Below, piece after piece: positions 2,402 to 64,000 of a DNA stretch of 64,000 nt (positions are counted from its first letter, which is position 1; every line of letters begins with the position of its first letter). The notes under the pieces are model-generated. The model was not told the DNA's origin. It searched no databases and worked only from the letters and a program-made list of their open reading frames with translations. The position numbers and the translations under genes are program-made. This DNA is from Octopus vulgaris. Lineage: Eukaryota. The stretch is from assembly GCA_951406725.2 (NCBI GenBank), contig OX597825.1, positions 41,044,001 through 41,108,000 on the forward strand, in the 5' to 3' direction.

Positions 2402-2455
2402 TATACATATATATTTATACATAATGTTTTCTTTCCTGGTGAAAGCTGGTTTGTA

Positions 2456-2514
2456 GGGTTACCTTGGGTTTCTTGTCCATAAAGGGTTTAACTTTATGGT
2501 GTGTCTTCAGACCC
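2456..2514 (-). ncRNA. Type I hammerhead ribozyme motif, canonical core
   Basis: Minus strand: GGGT-CTGAAGA-caca-CCATAAAG ttaaacc CTTTATGG-acaa-GAAA-CC caa GG-TA-ACCC. Stem I GGGT/ACCC, 8-bp stem II, GUA site. Confidence 0.8.
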
Positions 2515-2910
2515 CAAGACCTGTTTGGCCTATGACCTCTATAAAATATGGAAGGGGGCAAAGTGTGGATTATCTCCCTTTTCTAATGGATATTGACTTC
2601 CAGCCATACTGTCATCGATCAGCTATGTGGTTAACAACAGGGGATTATCTCTTTCTCCCATTAGCTATCAGCTTCCGGCAGTTCCCAAAAGGCCGGCACA
2701 AATCTCCTAAAACACAAACAGGAATTTTCTGCTGGCATTTTGGGAACTGCCAGAAGCTGATAGCTAATGGGAGAGGGAGATAATCCCCTGTTGTTTACCC
2801 TCATAGCTGATCGATGGTAGTACGGCCGGAAGTCAATATCCATTAGCAAAGGGAGATAATGCACACTTTTCTCCTCCATATTCTATAGAGGTCATAGGCC
2901 AACAGGTCTT

Positions 2911-2972
2911 GGGAACCTGATGATACGCCATAAAGTTAAACCCTTTATGGGCAGGAAACCCAAGGTAACCCC
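2911..2972 (+). ncRNA. Type I hammerhead ribozyme motif (stem I partly decayed)
   Basis: CTGATGA-tacg-CCATAAAG ttaaacc CTTTATGG-gcag-GAAAC-CCAAG-GTA-ACCC. Confidence 0.75.
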
Positions 2973-3149
2973 ATAAACCAGCCTTCCCCAGGAAATATAT
3001 AGACTGATCTACTTCTTAGAGTGTGCTACTTCTCTGGATTTATGTTTTTCGGAAAACAATACACACACACATAGACACAGAGTCAGATACTCGCACACAC
3101 AGACACACATAAATGTGTATAATATGTATGCATGTGTGTATATTTTATT

Positions 3150-3520
3150 TAAGTTCTTCTGAAGTGAGTTTAAGCCAGTCACTAAGAAATTGAAAAGACT
3201 TTTTGAGTTGACGTGTTCCAAGTTTCTCAAAAAAATGTTTTTGAGATGTTGTGTTAGTTAAGCTGTCATGTACACCCAAGCAAGTGCATCTATTCACCTA
3301 AAGAATCTTGATATGCACAAATGTGAATTAATTGTCAGAGTACTAGTGCTACAAGTTCCACATTAATACACCATAAATGTTCCCTTTTTTCCTAGACATT
3401 AGATTATATCTGGTACTTAAGAAGTTCCTGTCAGTCTGGCAGCTGATCTCTACAACAGTGTATGACTTTTGCTCCATGTTCCATACAACAATATCTAGCC
3501 TTTTGTGATTTATTAGAAGC
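3150..3520 (-). mobile_element. Non-LTR retrotransposon restriction-like endonuclease (REL) remnant, R4-like
   Basis: Minus-strand translation NHKRLDIVVWNMEQKSYTVVEISCQTDRN matches the RPD(I/L)V...(I/V)E(I/V)SCP REL motif. Confidence 0.65.
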
Positions 3521-37990: not shown

Positions 37991-38116
37991 TATATATATC
38001 TATATCTCTATATAACATATAGTATTTAATCATATCAAAGGGAAATGGAAATTAATTAAAATTTACATTTCCAGTGGTCTAATGTGTAAAAAAATTTAGT
38101 CAAAAAGACAATATAT

Positions 38117-38559
38117 TAGTCATACGATATAGTGTATATTTAAACACGTAAAGAATCCATTTATAGGGATTCTACACGCTAGAAAGAACAGCTAGGTTCT
38201 ATAACCACAAAAATTAGGGATAAAATTCGACAGGAATAAATTTAGAAATGAAAAACATTTACCATCCAGTTTCCTGGACCAATTGGTTTCTGATCTTATT
38301 TTAGTGAGTCAAGGAAAACTCACTAGGTTTGATCTTCCTCAGCAGTTCCAACCTAGGGTTAAACGTATACACACGGAATATTCAAAACTACTTGTCTTGT
38401 GTTTATATGTCCTAACTTTTTCAAAATTTATTGGTCAGTCGCAGTCCTGCGACTGTGCAGTAAATTTTTGTGGTTATAGAACCTAGCTCTCCTTTCTAGC
38501 ATGTAGAATCCCTATAAGTGGATTCCTTATGTATTTAAATATACACTATATCGTATGAC

Positions 38560-38561
<2 letters not shown>
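38117..38561. mobile_element. MITE/fold-back element with TIRs of about 100 bp
   Basis: 38117-38216 (TAGTCATACGATATAGTGTATATTTAAA...CTAGGTTCTATAACCACAAAAATT) is the reverse complement of 38461-38561; ends abut TA. Confidence 0.88.
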
Positions 38562-38592
<31 letters not shown>

Positions 38593-46829: not shown

Positions 46830-48672
46830 CATCTGATAACCAATTATCTAGCAAGCAGGGCCTCATGTCAGTGAGAGGTACTAGTGTGTAATGATGTCGT
46901 CAGAAGGTAGGCCCTGAAATGGCACACCTCTCCTAGCTTCCAATATGCAGAGCTTTTTTCAATTGGATGCACTTGCATGTGCAAGTTGTTTGCAAAACAT
47001 CAAAGAACTTGTAGTAGGTAGCTACTGACATACCAGAATAACGATTAGGCACCGTAGAAAGATAAGAGGACTGCTCAGAAAGATGAGCTGACAATGGTAA
47101 AGGCTATTGTGGCCAGGAAAGACTGGCAGAGGCTGAAGACTTACAATCCTCACCTCTGTACCATATTGTAACAACTACCAATGAGAACGACTGTGCCATG
47201 ATTGACTGAGAGTGGGGAGTCAAGAATCAATAAAAGCCAGTTAACACGGAAATAACCTTGGACATGAATATGGTCATTCCTCTAAACAGCGAATGAAGTG
47301 CAAACAACTTTGGATGCAAGCTGTGCCATAGGACATTTGCAACTGGAGAAGCTTAGAAATACATCAAGGAAAGACTTGTAAGAAGAGGAGACAGAGCAGT
47401 GTGGATTATCTGATCGTAAAAGACATGGAAACTGCAGGTTATGAGACTGGTGCATCAGATAGTACTCAGAAAAAAACTGAGGGTTCTGTGGCCTGCAGTT
47501 AATGAGAAAGGAAGATATAAAGAGTTTGAGAACAAGGTATGTCCAGCTCTTAATAAAATGACAGCATCTGCAGTGGAGCAACTGGGAAAGTTAGCAAGCT
47601 CAGTATATTATACGGGAAAGGAAATATTTGGAGTGAAATATTGGACCCAATTAATGAAAGAAAAGTATGGACTAAGTTGAAGGGTGAGGAAAATGAAACA
47701 TTTGACGGGGAAAAGAACAGCCTAAGAAAGCAATGGAAATGTGTGGAGGAAGACGAAAAACCTGGCCTCGTGCAGCTGTACGAAGATTTAAAAAGGAAAT
47801 GCAATTATGTGCAATGGCATATCTGCCAATATGAATGAAGAAAAGAAAGCAACATGACTCATGAACAGTTTCTGAAGGACCTGTATGGGGTTACTAAGAA
47901 GCTGTTCACTGAACTGAAGAGTGGCACCTTATTGTACACAAACAAAAAGGACTTGGTTGCTCATATCAAAGAAATCTACAGGCATCCAAACCAGCCATTT
48001 CCACCTATAAATGGGCTAAAGCATCTCTTATCGAATTTGAATTTGGGGATATCAGGGAGAAAGAGGTGAATGATTTTGTGAGCTGGAGCAAAGGAGGTGA
48101 TAGCATCTCGTATAAAGTATATGAATATTGCAACCATCTACAGAAGAAACTCTTTGTCCTCTCTGACAGCTGTGGCATGAAGAGACTCTAGTAGAAAACT
48201 AATGTATGGCAGAAGGCATATACCTGACAAAGGAGGTCAATGTAGAGAATATTAAACAGTTTAGGCCGATATCCTTATTGAATGTGGAAGGCAAGATCTT
48301 TATGGGAATTCTCTCAACAAGAATGGTGGCATATATACCGAGTAATGGATATGTTGATGAATCTTTTCTACAGGCCAGAATCCTTGGAGTTCCTGAATGC
48401 ATTGAGCATTGTTTTTCCAATCTGGAAAGTGATCCAGGATGTCAAACAGAACAAGACAAGTCTGAATATGGTATGGCTTGATCTAGCTAATGCATATGGC
48501 TCAGTGCTACACAAATTACTAATGAGAGCCATGTACCACTTCCATATTTCAGACAAAGTAACAAGATTAATGAGAGTATATTATGACAGTTTCAAAATGA
48601 GGTTTACAGCTGGAAAATTTTGCAACAGATCAGCTCTGATTGGGTGATTGGTATTGCTCCTGGATGCACAAT
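46830..48672 (+). mobile_element. HERO/NeSL-type LINE, 5' region to mid-RT, decayed
   Basis: VLWPAVNEK, AEGIYLTKE..NIKQFRPISLLNVEGKIF, GVPECIEH, VWLDLANAYGSVLH. Confidence 0.85.
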
Positions 48673-48739
48673 ATCTGAGATGTTCCATCTTACTAGATTT
48701 GTAGGTGATGACAAGACATTGTAGGAGGAACAAATCAGA

Positions 48740-49579
48740 AAACCTCCATATCTCATTCCATATATATATTAAAAGTGGCCATGAAAGTCTCAGATACAAG
48801 CCAAACTGCAAGCACCATATTTTATATTTACCTGGTAGCTTTGAATTATCTATTGCTGTTAATCCATCCTTGGGTTGTTTCATAATTTGCATTCCATGAC
48901 TCCTATCTCACAATATTCAAGCATATACATACCCCAAGCTCTTGGCAGGTTCTTTATTGACTGTTGGAATGCTCTCTTCAGCTATTTGAAATTTAACATC
49001 TTTTTGTACTCTCATAATAAACATCAGACTATACAACTTTTTTGCCCTGAATCGCATCCTTGACCACTTCATAAGCTCATATAGCCTCAAGAGGGCACTC
49101 TTCATCATTTGTTTGTCTGTTGACAGAAGTGTCACGTCATCTATGATTTCTTAGGTGATTGTACATGGGCGAGTTGTTCTGTAGAGTTCACTGCTTTCAA
49201 AATCATTTCCATGACTAGAATAAACCATGTGGCAAATATTATGCAGCCAGCAGCAATGTCAATCTCCAATAGGTGCCAATATGTTGTAAAATCTCCAGCT
49301 GTAAACCTCATCTCGAAACTGTCGTAATATATTCTCATTAATCTTGTTACTTTGTCTGAAATATGGAAGTGGTACATGGCTCTCATTAGTAATTTGTGTA
49401 GCACTGAGCCATATGCATTAGTTAGATCAAGCCATACCATATTCAGACTTGTCTTGTTCTGTTTGACATCCTGGATTACTTTCCAGATTGGAAAAACAAT
49501 GCTCAATGCATCTAGGGACTCCAGGGATTCTGGCCTGTTGAACAGATTCATCAACATATCCATTACTCGGTATATATGC
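48740..49579 (-). mobile_element. Inverted HERO LINE RT segment
   Basis: VWLDLTNAYGSVLH...IAAGC...DDVTLL...WSRMRFRAKK...IDNSKLPGKYKIWCLQFGL. Confidence 0.85.
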
Positions 49580-49617
<38 letters not shown>

Positions 49618-49779
49618 GTGAGAAAGTTGGTGTGTGAAAGCACGTGGTTGAATATATAGAAAATAGTAAAAAGGGAAAAAACTACAGAAGGCTTGTTTTA
49701 AAAGGTTAAAAAATATTTTTTTGAGTCATTATGTCAGAAGAATGTTATAAATTTTTTTCATACAATGACATAGTTTTTG

Positions 49780-49819
49780 AAGAAATGACCGGTTTCGCGT
49801 TCAGCTTTTCAAATTTCTT
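49780..49819 (-). ncRNA. Minimal hammerhead variant (U3-A8), left arm
   Basis: Exact reverse complement of 50976-51015. Confidence 0.8.
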
Positions 49820-50403
49820 ACATCGTTATGTTTTCGTTGAGAAGTGTAAAGGAGAGTTCCAGGTAAGGGGAGGTAATAAGTGATTTCTTCTGGTGTAAGG
49901 GAGATAATCGCTTAATATTTCTTGCCTTTTTTTGGGGGTGAGTTTCTCTGTATAAGAATGTTGGAGTGGTTAAGTTTGGGCTTATATTTTTCAATGAAGA
50001 ATGTTTCCTTGTTTAGTCTAATTTGTGTTGGTGTTCCGATAGCACATTGGTAAAATGGAAAGATTAAAAATTGTAGTAGTAGTTGCTTTGCGCATTTCTC
50101 AATGTGCTCACTAAAGGGTATCATTCTGTATTCTGGGAATGCAATCTGTTGTCGATGCAGTGTGCATCTACGTCTGAGTGATAGAAACTTTGAGAAAAGT
50201 TCAATACAACAACACACCTTCCCCGAAAATACTACCCTACATATCCACATACAACCCCAGAAACAAAGAAGCCTTCACCATCATCACCCAGAATTTACCA
50301 ATACTTCATAAGGACCCCAAATTAAAGGAAATTCTAAATAAACAAAATCACTAAAAGCTACAAACAACCTAAATCACTTAAAAAGATTCTCACAAAGGCA
50401 AAA

Positions 50404-50883
50404 TTGCTTTCTGAAATTACGGATGCAAAAGTAAAAAAATGTGGTAGACCAAACTGTGCAACATGTCCAAACCTGCTAGAAGGATCAGAATTCCCCTTCA
50501 AAGAGAGACAGAAATTCAAGATCAAATCTAATTTTACTTATGCTTTTGAAAACATAATTTATGTCATAAGATGCTCGTGCTGCCACCAAAACTACGTGGG
50601 GTCGATAGGACTATCACTCAGACGTAGATGCACACTGCATCGACAACAGATTGCATTCCCAGAATACAAAATGATACCCTTTAGTGAGCACATTGAGAAA
50701 TGTGCAAAGCAACTACTACCACAATTTTTAATCTTTCCATTTTACCAATGTGCTATCGGAACACCAACACAAATTAGACTAAACAAGGAAACATTCTTCA
50801 TTGAAAAATATAAGCCCAAACTTAACCACTCCAACATTCTTATACAGAGAAACTCATCTCCCAAAAAAGGCAAGAAATATTAA
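50404..50883 (+). CDS. GIY-YIG endonuclease domain of a Penelope-like retroelement (C-terminal part of the ORF; TE-derived)
   Basis: KCGRPNCATC (CxxxxCxxC linker), NIIYVIRCSCCHQNYVGS, R..LHRQQI, HIEKC, KETFFIEKYKPKLN. Confidence 0.9.
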   Translation: MLSEITDAKVKKCGRPNCATCPNLLEGSEFPFKERQKFKIKSNFTYAFENIIYVIRCSCCHQNYVGSIGLSLRRRCTLHRQQIAFPEYKMIPFSEHIEKCAKQLLPQFLIFPFYQCAIGTPTQIRLNKETFFIEKYKPKLNHSNILIQRNSSPKKGKKY

Positions 50884-50975
50884 GCGATTATCTCCCTTAC
50901 ACCAGAAGAAATCACTTATTACCTCCCCTTACCTGGAACTCTCCTTTACACTTCTCAACGAAAACATAACGATGT

Positions 50976-51015
50976 AAGAAATTTGAAAAGCTGAACGCGA
51001 AACCGGTCATTTCTT
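50976..51015 (+). ncRNA. Minimal hammerhead variant (U3-A8), right arm
   Basis: AAGAAAT-TTGAAAA-GC tgaac GC-GAAA-CCGG-TC-ATTTCTT: 7-bp stem I, palindromic ACCGGT stem III, GUC site. Confidence 0.8.
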
Positions 51016-51133
51016 CAAAAACTATGTCATTGTATGAATAAAATTTATAACATTCTTCTGACATAATGACTCAAATATATATTTTTTAACCTTTTAAAAC
51101 AAGCCTTCTGTAGTTTTTTCACTTTTTACTATT

Positions 51134-51179
<46 letters not shown>

Positions 51180-51183
<4 letters not shown>

Positions 51184-51359
51184 ATAAGCAACAAGGCTAT
51201 ATATAGATCGCTAGCCACTAAACCTTTTTCTATTTTCTCTCCTTGTATATTTCTTTGTTCCTGTTTGTCAAAGAGCATAGGCTTAAAATGTAAAAGACTT
51301 TCTCGTTTCTGTTTGTTGCTAACACACCTGTCTATGTCTTTTGATTTTTTGTAAATTCT

Positions 51360-51365
<6 letters not shown>
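51180..51365 (+). mobile_element. pLTR-like fragment, family B (decayed HHR), inside (TA)n
   Basis: TTTTCTCTCCTTGT...AAGAGCATAGGCTTAAAATGTAAAAGACT...GTAAATTCTC; homologous to the copies at 62209 and 63595. Confidence 0.7.
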
Positions 51366-51412
<47 letters not shown>

Positions 51413-51749
51413 ATATATATGCATATTTATGTATATGTATATATATATATATGTATGTATGTGTGTAGTTTAAATATACATATATACATACACACCTATA
51501 TGTATATATAGGATATAAATATACATATATACACACATATATATACGTATATACATATCAACAAATAAAACCACTTGGGCTATATATTGAAAACACAGAT
51601 GCATGTATACATGTAAATAGAGATAAAAGAAAGACTGAAAATATTCATATGATGAGTATTCCTGTAAAAGTATATAGATAGAAAGTATGGTGTTAAAGGT
51701 CTGACAGCAGTCTGTGGGGCTTGGAATTACTTCATGATGATGGTGGATG

Positions 51750-56660: not shown

Positions 56661-57168
56661 TATTTATCAGTTAAAATTGCTGTCATCCACACATATTGCT
56701 TTATCTTTTCAAGTGCTGATGTCACATAAAAATCATTCGTGTCAATGCTGCATATATGCTCACGTGCTGGTGACATGTAAAAAGCACCCAGCACACTCTG
56801 TCAAGTGGTTGGCATTAGGAACAGCATCCAGCTGTAGAAACCATGCCACAACAGACAAATGGGTCTGGACACCTCCCAGATGGCCAGCTCCATGTCACAC
56901 CATCCAACTCATGACAGCATAGAAAGCTGACAAACGATGATAATGATGATGAATCAGAGACAAACCAGCCACTGTCTGGTTTATTAACTATCACATCAGT
57001 GTATTTATATTAATATGTCTGCCTTTTCACTATTAATCCTGAAGATTTCTACTTGAGCCACGTTTATGTATTTGTTTTGCAAGATTCCTCATATGGAATT
57101 ATGTATTGAAACAGATATTGGTATATTAGGGTGTTATCATTTTATTTTTTTTTATTTTTATTTGCCAC

Positions 57169-57476
57169 TATATACTCGTACTTCACTTAAGGTTCATTAT
57201 TGTTCATATTTTCGTATCTTTTGTCTGAATTCTTTCATCACACATCCTGTGATCTTTTCAGCAACTCTCCATTCCACATGTCTTCCTCTGTTCTGTTTAG
57301 TCCATTCTGTCTTTGTTTTTAAATTCCTGTAACTGTGGTTCATTCAGAAAGACAGTATGGGCTAAACAGAACATGAAGAGTTGCTGAAGAGGTCACAGGA
57401 TGTGTGATGAAAGATTTCACACAAAAGATAGTAAGATAAGAATAATTATAAAACTGAAGTGAACAAAAAGTATATA
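57169..57476. mobile_element. About 310 bp palindrome with an HHR-like core in each arm
   Basis: Arms are reverse complementary. Right arm: CTGAAGA-g-GTCACA ggatg TGTGAT-GAAA-GATTTC (57384-57418). Left arm carries the mirror on minus (57227-57264). Confidence 0.8.
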
Positions 57477-58242
57477 ATGCATGTGGTTGTTTGGCGAAAG
57501 AAACAGAAATGACCATCCCCAAATATATGAGTTCTTTTCGAGTAAAAGTCCTTTTACAATTGTGCAATTCATGAAAGGTTATTTTTCTCACTGATTTCAC
57601 TAGTAACATAACAAATTACAACCAGCTAAATAAATGCATTCTAAATGTTCACTTACAATTTTAACAATTAATTCAAAAGAATGGTGATTATCCCATCATC
57701 TTCAATATTGTTTTAACTCAACAGAACATCCATTTGTTTCATTGAATATAATAGATTCAAGAGTAAATAATGATGGTGGTAATACAAAGATAGTAAACAG
57801 CAACAATATACATAGCCAAGAGCTGTTATTATACACTCTCGAAAATTTGATGGGTTCAGTAAAATAAAATGACTGTTCCATTGCATTAATAATCAGAAGG
57901 AAAAAGAAAAAATTAACACTCTACATGTTTCCTGGTATTGACTTTCCAATTATAACAATATAATGTGAATTTATTGCATATTGAATAAAGTATAATTCAA
58001 GTTTATATTTGATGTGAGATTCAACATCAAAAATACATTAATATTAGACATGTGCTTGCCTTAGTTCTAAGGTATCAAAAATGAAAATTAAACATTAACA
58101 TGAATTGTAGTTATTGAGAGACAGTCTGTTTAACCTACAACTTAAATGTAGTTAGCTTACAGTAAGGGAGAAATACAAGAGAGAAATCTGGATTTAGATA
58201 ATAACTTCATTAAATTAATGGTGTAAAAATTGGAAGGTTGGA

Positions 58243-60668: not shown

Positions 60669-60699
60669 AATGAAATATGTATGTGTGTATATATATATA

Positions 60700-60865
60700 T
60701 CTTTACGTAGTTAAATCTATGTCTACTCATTGGATGACCAATGGTTTTGCATCCACAAAGGGCTTAGCCCCATGGATATCTCATCAGACTCTAAAGCTGA
60801 AGACCTTTGTGGATGTGAAACCATTGGTCCCTCAATAACTGAACATAGACTTAACTACATATAAA
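60700..60865. mobile_element. About 165 bp palindrome with an HHR-like core
   Basis: GTAGTTAA.TCTATGT...GACCAATGGTTT..CATCCACAAAGG pairs with CCTTTGTGGATGTGAAACCATTGGTC...ACATAGACTTAACTAC. Right arm: CTGAAGA..GAAAC-CATTG-GTC (60797-60829). Confidence 0.75.
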
Positions 60866-61459
60866 TACATTACTGCTTTAGAGTGTGCTTCTTTTACAGA
60901 TATATGATATATTGACAATATATATGTGTGTATATAATCATGAATAGGGGCAGTTATACTCCATCTATAGCACAACTATTTAGTGCTTGAAGTTCAAAGT
61001 TAATTGGGTTATTGAAATATTATGGAAGATTTTGGATTTGCGACAAAATTTTAAGTTATCAGTCCATGTAAAAAAAGTAAAACTTCAATCCTTTAAATGC
61101 TTCATAAAAATATATATGTAAAATAAATATTTCGACATGAGAGGCAAATATACACATTGAAACAATACATATTCAGTGATATCATAGATACAGGATTGGT
61201 TCATTGCATCAAAGGTGCTAATATTAAAACTCATAAGAGTAGATGGAAAGATTGACAGAAGTTTAAATTAAAATCCAAATGTGAAATTTAACTTATACAT
61301 CCTACAGCTTTTCAGGAAATATAATGGTACGAGCAGATTTCAATTTAAATCCATTCCAGAATCATTATTTCTTTCGTCAGTGATATTAATATCTCACATA
61401 GATCACATTTGGCATATTTGTTCATAGACATCAAAGATCAGTTACACTATACACTACAT

Positions 61460-62208: not shown

Positions 62209-62370
62209 AATGTTTTTCTCCTTGTTTCTTTCTGTGTTCCTTTCTGTGGAAGAGCATACGCTTCAAACGTTAAAGACTTTTTCAATTCCCGGACGTTATT
62301 CTAATACATCTGTTTGTTTTCTACACCACCTGTCTTTATCTTTTTCTTTTTTCGTGAATTCTCCCTCTAT
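62209..62370 (+). mobile_element. pLTR-like fragment, family B (decayed HHR 62239-62276)
   Basis: TTTCTGTGGAAGAGCATACGCTTCAAACGTTAAAGAC; ends at a (TA)n tract. Confidence 0.75.
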
Positions 62371-62519
62371 ATATATACATATATATATACACACATATAT
62401 ATATACATATATATACACACACACACATATATATATACATACATATATATATATATATACATATAAATATATATATGTGTCTGTGTGTGTGTGTTTGTGT
62501 GTGTATATATATATATATA

Positions 62520-62700
62520 TGGGGAGAATTCACAAAAAAAACAAAAGATGAAGACAAGTAGTGTAGACAACAAACAGATGTATTAGTATAATGCTCGGGA
62601 ACTGAAAAGGTCTTTAATATTTCGAGCCTACACTCTTCTACAGAAAGGAACACAGAAAAAAACAAGGAGAGAAAATAAAGAATGTGTAGTGGCGAGCAAA
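62520..62700 (-). mobile_element. pLTR-like fragment, family B (HHR variant 62611-62648)
   Basis: Minus strand CTTT-CTGTAGA-A-GAGT gtag GCTC-GAAA-TATT-AAAG. Confidence 0.75.
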
Positions 62701-62711
62701 GGCTGGGTTAT

Positions 62712-62766
62712 GGGCTAACCTTAGGTTTCATGTCTATAAAGAGTTTATGGCATATCATCAGATCCC
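62712..62766 (-). ncRNA. Type I hammerhead motif (family A)
   Basis: Minus strand GGGAT-CTGATGA-tatg-CCATAAA ctc TTTATAG-acat-GAAAC-CTAAG-GTT-AGCCC. Confidence 0.72.
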
Positions 62767-63489
62767 AAAACCTATTGGCTAAAGGCCTCTCTAGCAAGTG
62801 GACTCTCAAGAGTATGGAGGAAGAAAAGACCCTACTACTCCATGTCAACAAAAGGAATTGTCTCCACTAGGCTATCTATTTCTGATGTCACCAAAGGAGA
62901 TTGTATCCCTTTAGCTATCGATCACCAGTGACCCTGTTATCCCATGGGTTCCAATAGGCTAGCAAGAATTTCCTGAAATGTAAGCACAGTTTGAAGACCT
63001 CCATTCTGACGTTCAGGATGTTTCTTGGGTTGAGGAATCCTTTAAGGTCCTCACCCATTCCGCTATGCATGATTTACAATGATTGGTCCTTTTAATGTAG
63101 GGGCCTGGCTTTTCTAGGATTCTCCATGATATAAAATCCTGTTGTCTATTAGCTGCCATACATAGCTGGCTATTAACATAATGAATCTCCTTTCTGGCAT
63201 CCTGCAGGAGGATCTGTGGTTGGGGAGACAATGTTTGAATGAGTTCCAGAAACAGCCAATGTATCTCCATGGTCAGGAGTTGGCAGTGGTGTGTCTGTTG
63301 GTGTTGCTACAACCGCTGTTGCTGGAATTGACACTATTGGTGCTGTCACTGCTGGTGTTGGCATCAGTGGAGGTGATGATAGTGTTGGTGTTGGTGCCAT
63401 TGTTGTTGTCGACATTTGAGTAATGGACTCCTGTTCTCCTCCATCACTAGAGAGGTGACTTGCTAGAGAGGCCTTCAGCGAACAGGTTT

Positions 63490-63550
63490 GGGATCTGATG
63501 ATACAGCATAAAGCAAAGCATTTTATGGATATGAAGCACAAGGTAATCCC
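63490..63550 (+). ncRNA. Type I hammerhead motif (family A; GAAA mutated to GAAG)
   Basis: GGGAT-CTGATGA-tacag-CATAAAG caaagca TTTTATG-gatat-GAAGC-ACAAG-GTA-ATCCC; perfect 5-bp stem I. Confidence 0.7.
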
Positions 63551-63584
63551 ATAAACTGGCCTTATCTAACTTTAATATATACTG

Positions 63585-63762
63585 GTCCAGTATATATTTT
63601 TTTTCTCTCCTTGTTTCTTTTCTGTGTATCTTTCTGTTGAAGAGCGTAGGCTCGAAATGTAAAGGACTTGTTTTATTTCTATTCCTGAGCGCCATACTAA
63701 TACAATTGTTTGTTTGTACTCCACCTGCCTTCGTCTTTTGTTTATTTTCGTAAACCTTCCCG
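63585..63762 (+). mobile_element. Family-B pLTR-like fragment inserted in the family-A tail with a 14-bp TSD; HHR variant 63629-63666
   Basis: TTTAATATATACTG at 63571-63584 and 63763-63776; CTGTTGA-A-GAGC gtag GCTC-GAAA-TGTA. Confidence 0.8.
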
Positions 63763-64000
63763 TTTAATATATACTGTTCTATAACTTAGAGTGTGCTTCT
63801 TTTTCTCAGATTCATGTTTACGGACAATCCAATATACATACACACACACACACATATATATATATATATGAATAAAATAAAATAAAAAATACACTTTACA
63901 GGACATTACCAATGAGTGAAAAATACATAACACATGAGAGAATAGTACAGGACAAAATACCAAATGTCGGACTGTTTATTACTCCCTATTTCATGAGTGC

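Follow-up and report, generated by a model that had tools for sequence, protein, structure and literature searches.

Penelope-like elements (PLEs) of metazoans carry hammerhead ribozymes, in places as opposite-strand pairs lying about 100-700 bp apart, and minimal and variant forms of these ribozymes are reported to have low activity in vitro (Cervera and de la Peña 2014, PMC4209133). Craig et al. (2021, PMC8557442) list, within the Hydra clade, Penelope-13_HM of Repbase, which includes an inverted 5'-truncated copy and has one hammerhead per strand; Files S1, S2 and S7 of that paper include Hydra-1_Obim, a Hydra-clade PLE of Octopus bimaculoides. The combination of an inverted 5'-truncated copy with a one-sided tail has precedents in the same paper and among the Penelope insertions of Adineta vaga (Arkhipova et al. 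2013, PMC3846280), where self-priming was proposed to account for inverted copies. The tail of PLEs has been described as the stretch bounded by two reverse transcriptase (RT) start sites (Frangieh et al. 2024, PMC11167929), and the origin of tails and inversions is presented as an open question in both PMC8557442 and PMC11167929.

The palindrome at 2432-2995 of the window (the whole 64-kb stretch of octopus DNA analysed) is very probably an old Hydra-clade PLE insertion, now decayed, in which two copies of the 3' end of the element, each heavily truncated on its 5' side, stand head to head. By homology it most likely belongs with Hydra-clade PLE insertions, as an ordinary product of Penelope-like retrotransposition. 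Its two hammerheads, 400 bp apart, fall within the range published for metazoan PLEs and share with the D. virilis variant of PMC4209133 a long, bulged helix II with one additional base on its 5' side and a small palindromic helix III. They depart from the hammerheads of that paper in that the first pair of helix II is A-U rather than G-C in both arms of a sister copy, and in that the palindrome's own copies are decayed. In contrast to Penelope-13_HM, whose consensus is 3 kb long and includes RT, the palindrome is a 0.63-kb stub truncated in both arms, and its helix II is longer and bulged. The Adineta insertions resemble it in their head-to-head junctions, one-ended tails and N-rich ORF inserts, and Anolis Poseidon (PMC11167929) in its two-RT-start tail, AT-rich targets and protein-assisted hammerhead; however, both represent other PLE clades, and their tails measure 30-40 bp, as against ~65 nt in the palindrome. 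Target-site duplications of 8-10 bp accompany some Adineta copies (PMC3846280), whereas none was found at the palindrome, where the longest exact word in common is 7 nt and lies within the tail; an old duplication could have decayed.

The palindrome and its hammerhead cores

The features of the palindrome are the following.

2432-2708, minus strand: left arm, in which the element's 3' end is inverted, lacks the tail and is truncated on its 5' side (self-comparison, alignment)
2456-2514, minus strand: type I hammerhead core, Penelope/Hydra-type, with helix I 5/5 and core-proximal helix II 0/3 paired (descriptor, alignment, pairing probabilities)
2709-2719, no strand: fold-back centre and inversion junction (fold; bridged in 4/4 runs)
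2720-2995, plus strand: right arm, a sense copy of the element's 3' end (self-comparison, alignment)
2720-2767, plus strand: likely the last ~15 codons and stop of a Hydra-type GIY-YIG ORF, beginning RNFLLAFW (likeness to the sister's endonuclease end)
2746-2860, plus strand: degenerate internal duplication in the 3' UTR, 2746-2784 and 2822-2860, 72%, 76-nt spacing (self-comparison)
2912-2972, plus strand: type I hammerhead core (2917-2967), paired at 2/5 positions in helix I and 1/3 in core-proximal helix II (pattern, alignment, pairing probabilities)
2996-3060, plus strand: one-sided tail of ~65 nt, containing a short, degenerate stem-loop (3006-3022) and the common motif (3017-3027) and running into an (AC)n tract (sequence)

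An earlier note on this DNA had described a near-complete palindrome with arms pairing nearly to the centre, and blastn, fold and bridging contigs bear it out. When the window is compared with itself by blastn, 2432-2995 forms an inverted repeat (85.8% across 569 columns), in which arms 2432-2708 and 2720-2995 align with 244 identical positions, 30 substitutions and 5 gap columns (89% identity) around an unpaired centre of 11 nt. The predicted fold, a check that the note had proposed, reaches -448 kcal/mol (z -46), a stability equalled by none of 20 shuffles. Contigs covering 2465/2473-2755 cross the centre in all four DNA runs, with 0, 2, 2 and 4 differences, so the palindrome is not an assembly fold-back; the runs carry four organism labels, and one run may be the source of the window. 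The arms have diverged by 11%, and the changes do not favour preservation of the hairpin: mismatches of the G-U kind (11) are about as frequent as those of the A-C kind (9; p 0.82). On the left the palindrome stops ~28 nt past the hammerhead cleavage triplet and adjoins a TA-rich run, and on the right it enters the (AC)n tract. A repeat at 1546-2405, presumably Tc1/mariner-like, 79% identical to 36457-35588 and without a Pfam match, stops ~25 bp to the left; the insertion is located in the TA-rich run beside it.

The same note had seen two canonical hammerheads in the arms. Both cores are indeed present, with the conserved letters CUGANGA, GAAA and NUH intact: the minus core (2514-2456) reads CUGAAGA/GAAA/GUA and has helix I fully paired, and its plus-strand mirror has its core at 2917-2967. 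A loose core pattern occurs six times in the window, as against a mean of 0.48 and a maximum of 3 among 200 shuffles. It is the word canonical that does not hold, for in neither copy do three helices close on the core. The 8-bp stem, taken in the note for an intact stem II of the minus copy, is detached from the core by unpaired bases; in the plus copy the mismatches of helix I are the three pairs adjoining the core; helix III amounts to 3 bp with a 3-nt loop. A strict hammerhead descriptor matches the minus copy and not the plus copy, and Rfam returned no hammerhead at the gathering score nor any among 11 matches at E<=10 (matches to miRNA hairpins were generic and below the gathering score). 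The pairs that close the core have a predicted probability of at most 0.004 in both copies, and in a read-through transcript 57-59 of the 64 hammerhead bases are predicted to pair with the opposite arm. Both hammerheads are thus predicted not to fold into a cutting shape. Because the cores lie on opposite strands, one transcript holds one sense core only; a dimer of the two in cis, which had been entertained, cannot form, the more so as most bases of each would be engaged with the other arm. Covariation, another check suggested earlier, could be examined on the four arms of the window and was uninformative (two double changes, equalled or exceeded in 144 of 500 shuffles).

Most likely, the hammerheads are passengers inherited from the pseudo-LTR of the parent element, in which such motifs are likely weak ribozymes, helped by dimer formation or by proteins. 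The family majority letters at 2916, 2951 and 2503, taken from the 40 differences listed of 232, restore one pair of helix I, the bulge in helix II and the additional base, all of which the sister arms show.

The sister copy and the endonuclease link

A second member of the family lies at 62.7-63.9 kb in the window.

62699-63269, minus strand: long arm, with the C-terminal half of a Hydra-clade GIY-YIG endonuclease, broken by frameshifts (63269-62954), a 3' UTR and a hammerhead core at 62761-62717 (blastn, tblastn, pattern)
63400-63852, plus strand: short inverted arm, with a hammerhead near 63497-63545 whose core is mutated to GAAG and the same tail as the palindrome, split by another repeat at 63587-63766 (blastn, pattern)

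Hammerhead and tail are those of the palindrome; the centre of this copy differs from the palindrome's and is asymmetric. Its 97-residue minus frame has four protein matches among 1.84 billion, three of which (P0001, which is O. bimaculoides XP_014771448, P0003 and P0004) are GIY-YIG C-terminal fragments, the fourth (P0002) being an unrelated repeat protein. A search from P0004 led to 10 proteins, among them full ORFs with RT (P0009, P0010 and P0014); when 10 of these proteins were compared with the window by tblastn, three collinear HSPs appeared on the minus strand at 63263-62954, with E values of 2.5e-7 (P0013, P0006), 5.2e-6 (P0010) and 8.7e-19 (XP_014771448). The sister copy reads C-K-S-C-I-A-E ... 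L-N-V-R-M-E ... C-L-H, and the matching proteins have both motifs. P0010 has RWK, DKT, CxCX5C, CxxC..E, CxH and YRDD, so that those of the diagnostic Hydra-clade motifs in section 11 of PMC8557442 that were searched for were all found. Membership of the Hydra clade is thus assigned by homology, and not from a family tree, the RWK, DKT and CxCX5C parts and the CCHH-free stretch between GIY and YIG having been lost from both window copies, though present in P0010; the Nematis clade, considered first, gave way to Hydra on these published motifs. A DIRS-type element with inverted terminal repeats, or an ORF antisense to the hammerhead (the Thr/Pro-rich frame 63176-63565), was also considered and rejected, as the endonuclease is in sense with the minus-strand hammerhead. 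The sister copy thereby has the endonuclease upstream of the 3' pseudo-LTR that characterizes PLEs with an endonuclease, and a type I hammerhead lies in sense downstream of the ORF in the sister and of the likely ORF end in the palindrome.

The earlier statement that no RT or endonuclease coding is evident stands for the palindrome itself, in which tblastn and hmmsearch found no endonuclease; it does not extend to the sister, and the palindrome centre likely keeps ~15 endonuclease codons, a reading that rests on position. There RNFLLAFW faces RKFLLAYW of the sister (19/27 nt, 6/9 amino acids, four synonymous codon differences), and the ORF end would precede the hammerhead core by 177 nt, compared with 192 nt in the sister. 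RNFLLAFW is the best of 807 8-mers from the element, and 51 of 37,880 background 8-mers score equally, which makes about one equally good 8-mer among 807 the chance expectation. At the nucleotide level the likeness is weak: 10 of 2,000 random 150-mers match the sister's endonuclease end as well as the centre does, and the best local match is a different 14-mer. No RT-coding part of the family was found in the 64-kb window and no full-length protein among the proteins searched, the latter being weak evidence; Pfam on 8 window ORFs and 9 matched proteins yielded nothing informative. P0009, P0010 and P0014, full Hydra-clade RT-endonuclease ORFs, have no Pfam match at E<=0.01, from which it follows that Pfam-based annotation misses this clade. 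XP_014771448 is annotated 'uncharacterized protein DDB_G0287625-like'; it is likely part of a Hydra PLE endonuclease, preceded by 228 residues rich in N, S and T, a stretch comparable to the N-rich inserts of Adineta PLEs (PMC3846280).

Hydra-1_Obim (PMC8557442) is among the nearest known systems. By eye, its endonuclease ends in HFRKFLL..W (RKFLLQNW at the equivalent place), like HFRKFLLAYW of the sister and RNFLLAFW of the palindrome centre; a sense hammerhead follows ~125 nt past the stop, the consensus ends ~35 nt past the cleavage triplet, its first ~35 nt resemble the tail of the palindrome, and its targets are (TA)n. The hammerhead helices I-III and the 3' UTR differ in sequence, which makes the palindrome a member of a sister family; in this family the N/S/T-rich stretch ahead of the YIG motif also appears to be longer, with N, S or T at 35 of 56 residues in the sister copy and at 124 of 228 in XP_014771448. 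It is probably an uncatalogued octopus Hydra family. The literature searched contains no description of it; Repbase, Dfam and the supplementary repeat library of PMC13282606 may include it.

A family of variably truncated and inverted copies

The existence of a family, foreseen in the earlier note, is confirmed by the sister copy and by contig depth. Contigs were counted at a likeness to the element of at least 80%; their depths were summed, which does not amount to counting copies. This depth in run X1 is 62,662 over the hammerhead (2936-2979) and 1,069 just right of the centre (2716-2759), a ~60-fold drop; across the tail it is 13,218 at 2980-3023 and 5,184 at 3024-3067. Locus-specific contigs of the same run have a depth of 49-63, and the hammerhead stands ~1,000-fold above such single-locus contigs. 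The profile has the same shape in all four runs. Six opposite-strand joints, among the 15 listed of 136, use six distinct position pairs. Loose ends lie at 3048 and at 2990, the mirror position of the left end; those at 2990 enter AT-rich DNA in 50-62 contigs per run in three runs and, together with the TA-rich left end of the palindrome, agree with the insertion of Hydra-clade elements into (TA)n. The family is 3'-anchored, variably truncated and variably inverted, and the depth gradient with strand switches at varied places argues for 5' truncation with inversion rather than for a fixed MITE. In viral contigs the family pattern was found 0 times.

Relatives of the element have the same layout. 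Eighty metagenome loci encode the related endonuclease; they are partly redundant, and the counts that follow are not independent. Where the endonuclease end and at least 500 nt downstream are available, 23 of 46 loci have a sense core 68-303 nt after that end (median 169) and 1 of 46 an antisense core, while 5 of 41 copies truncated within a contig have an adjoining inverted ORF piece. In these relatives as in the family, the endonuclease end is followed by a UTR, a sense hammerhead and an optional tail.

The symmetry of the palindrome, near perfect from its termini to its centre, could nevertheless be that of a self-propagating, non-autonomous unit of the MITE or fold-back type, begun as a PLE stub and copied whole, with hammerheads kept for function; such a palindrome of ~600 bp, bearing hammerheads at both ends, would be transcribed from either strand and recopied whole by the Hydra RT-endonuclease. 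If true, this mobile palindrome would be the first ribozyme-bearing palindromic non-autonomous retroelement. We consider it very improbable in either wording. Across 2584-2715 the X1 depth, at 250-590, exceeds that of locus-specific contigs severalfold, which means that a few other copies reach the inner arm; however, uniform full-length copies with a fixed interior are not what the inward fall in depth and the varied junctions describe, and the sister, tied to an endonuclease, has a different, asymmetric centre. All invariant core letters are kept in both copies, but this survival is unremarkable (with ~5.5% decay per arm, all 26 bases would stay intact with a probability of roughly 0.2-0.25), and the helices beside both cores are broken. 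No target-site duplication was found either, and the view implied earlier, of a MITE-like unit with two working ribozymes, is not supported.

A hairpin RNA of whatever origin, retained by the host under selection as dsRNA or as a substrate for small-RNA production or ADAR, is a still less probable account. The fold is very stable, the left arm and centre show no more than 0-4 differences across the runs, which carry four organism labels, and octopus is rich in dsRNA-forming loci with strong hyper-editing (PMC5625713). Yet the flank at 2998-3400 is about equally conserved between runs (1-8 differences), so the conservation of the arm reflects close kinship; mismatches lack the excess of G-U over A-C, and at least six other fold-backs lie within the same 64 kb. 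The least probable reading is that of a non-LTR retrozyme-type element replicating through circular RNA. In its favour, the repeat is short and non-coding and its type I hammerhead has a weak helix III, and animal retrozymes have been argued to stem from PLE pseudo-LTRs (10.64898/2026.07.22.740005). The same source defines retrozymes by head-to-tail tandem units with same-strand hammerheads, whereas the cores stand head to head on opposite strands at both family loci of the window, with no tandem unit, and a remnant of endonuclease lies upstream.

Insertion, tail and meaning

For the decayed Hydra-clade insertion that we prefer, the following course is proposed. Each arm represents the 3' end of the element in the order seen in the family: an ORF ending in the Hydra-type GIY-YIG endonuclease, a UTR of ~180 nt, the sense type I hammerhead and the optional tail. 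The parent's RT-endonuclease would cut TA-rich DNA, as PLE work suggests, and RT would be primed at one of two internal starts downstream of the hammerhead, leaving a tail-less left and a tailed right end. Synthesis would halt after ~280-340 nt, barely inside the final codons of the ORF. Self-priming or template switch would add another truncated copy, inverted, to the 5' end, and every insertion would thus make its own mirror arm. The 11% divergence of the arms and the broken helices beside both cores mark later decay. Truncation at the 5' end, an adjoining inverted truncated copy and a one-sided tail, as found here, are the recognized traits of PLE insertions.

The unpaired right-side tail, noticed earlier, is real; an 11-nt motif of it occurs in the window at 3017, 60879 and 63787 only (chance 0.09), each time behind a hammerhead core. 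The family majority in the contigs of the DNA runs restores a C at 3007 in the tail stem-loop. By eye, the motif is similar to the start of Hydra-1_Obim, which would be expected were the tail the beginning of the 5' UTR of a next tandem unit. Among the related loci, a GCTC...GAGY motif occurs no more than 170 nt after the cleavage triplet in 10 of the 23 with a sense core (background 113 of 2,000); by eye, the tailed loci end ~30-45 nt after it, and most of the remaining ones stop in AT-rich repeats 30-55 nt past the triplet, just ahead of its place. The palindrome has both types of end, a tail-less left arm and a right arm with the degenerate stem-loop at 3006-3022. A GCTC...GAGCAC stem-loop is a candidate mark of the pair of RT start sites by which the tail would be defined. 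Hydra-clade 5' UTRs contain two copies of a GCTC(N6-22)GAGCAC-type stem-loop; it lies between hammerhead and ORF start in L008, L012, L014, L020, L022, L053 and L055, and 3' ends fall just before the first stem-loop or ~30-45 nt beyond it in L003, L009, L010, L019, L025, L029, L046 and L061. An intron running from the cleavage triplet (AAG|GTAA) to the tail was considered and discarded: related Hydra hammerheads mostly lack the donor context, the palindrome copy lacks an AG, and Hydra-1_Obim, by eye, lacks one at the equivalent place and has its ORF start ~175 nt in.

Other elements of the window have similar shapes. At 49652-51143 lies the young 3' end of a PLE, which we take to be Neptune-like, with a GIY-YIG ORF piece (50338-50883, plus strand) that has two cysteines between its motifs; its 533-bp, 98%-identical inverted 5'-truncated copy is a textbook case of the palindrome's geometry. 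A smaller hammerhead palindrome of another Hydra-like family (60695-60905) has the tail motif at 60879. Another repeat family (63571-63780, 62213-62697 and 51210-51521) is inserted in the sister's tail and adjoins the sister's left end; in the tail, an AT-rich word of ~14-18 nt is duplicated at 63571 and 63763, a case of PLE-into-PLE nesting. Further fold-backs lie at 38112-38567, 48329-49579 (with RT-like frames), 57166-57479 and 62213-62674, and a single self-BLAST filter gives seven in the 64-kb window. There are also a hammerhead-like core at 38342-38277 (minus strand) and a decayed Hydra-type endonuclease fragment at 51975-51805 (minus strand; tblastn E 0.003, profile iE 3.7e-5).

The palindrome as such has little wider meaning; it adds one probably uncatalogued Hydra family to those of octopus. 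Should the stem-loop prove to mark the RT start sites, it would provide a defined cis-element for the way in which PLE tails and inversions form. And if they are transcribed, fold-backs at a density of seven per 64 kb would be self-contained dsRNA and a candidate source of the excess of hyper-editing in octopus (PMC5625713).
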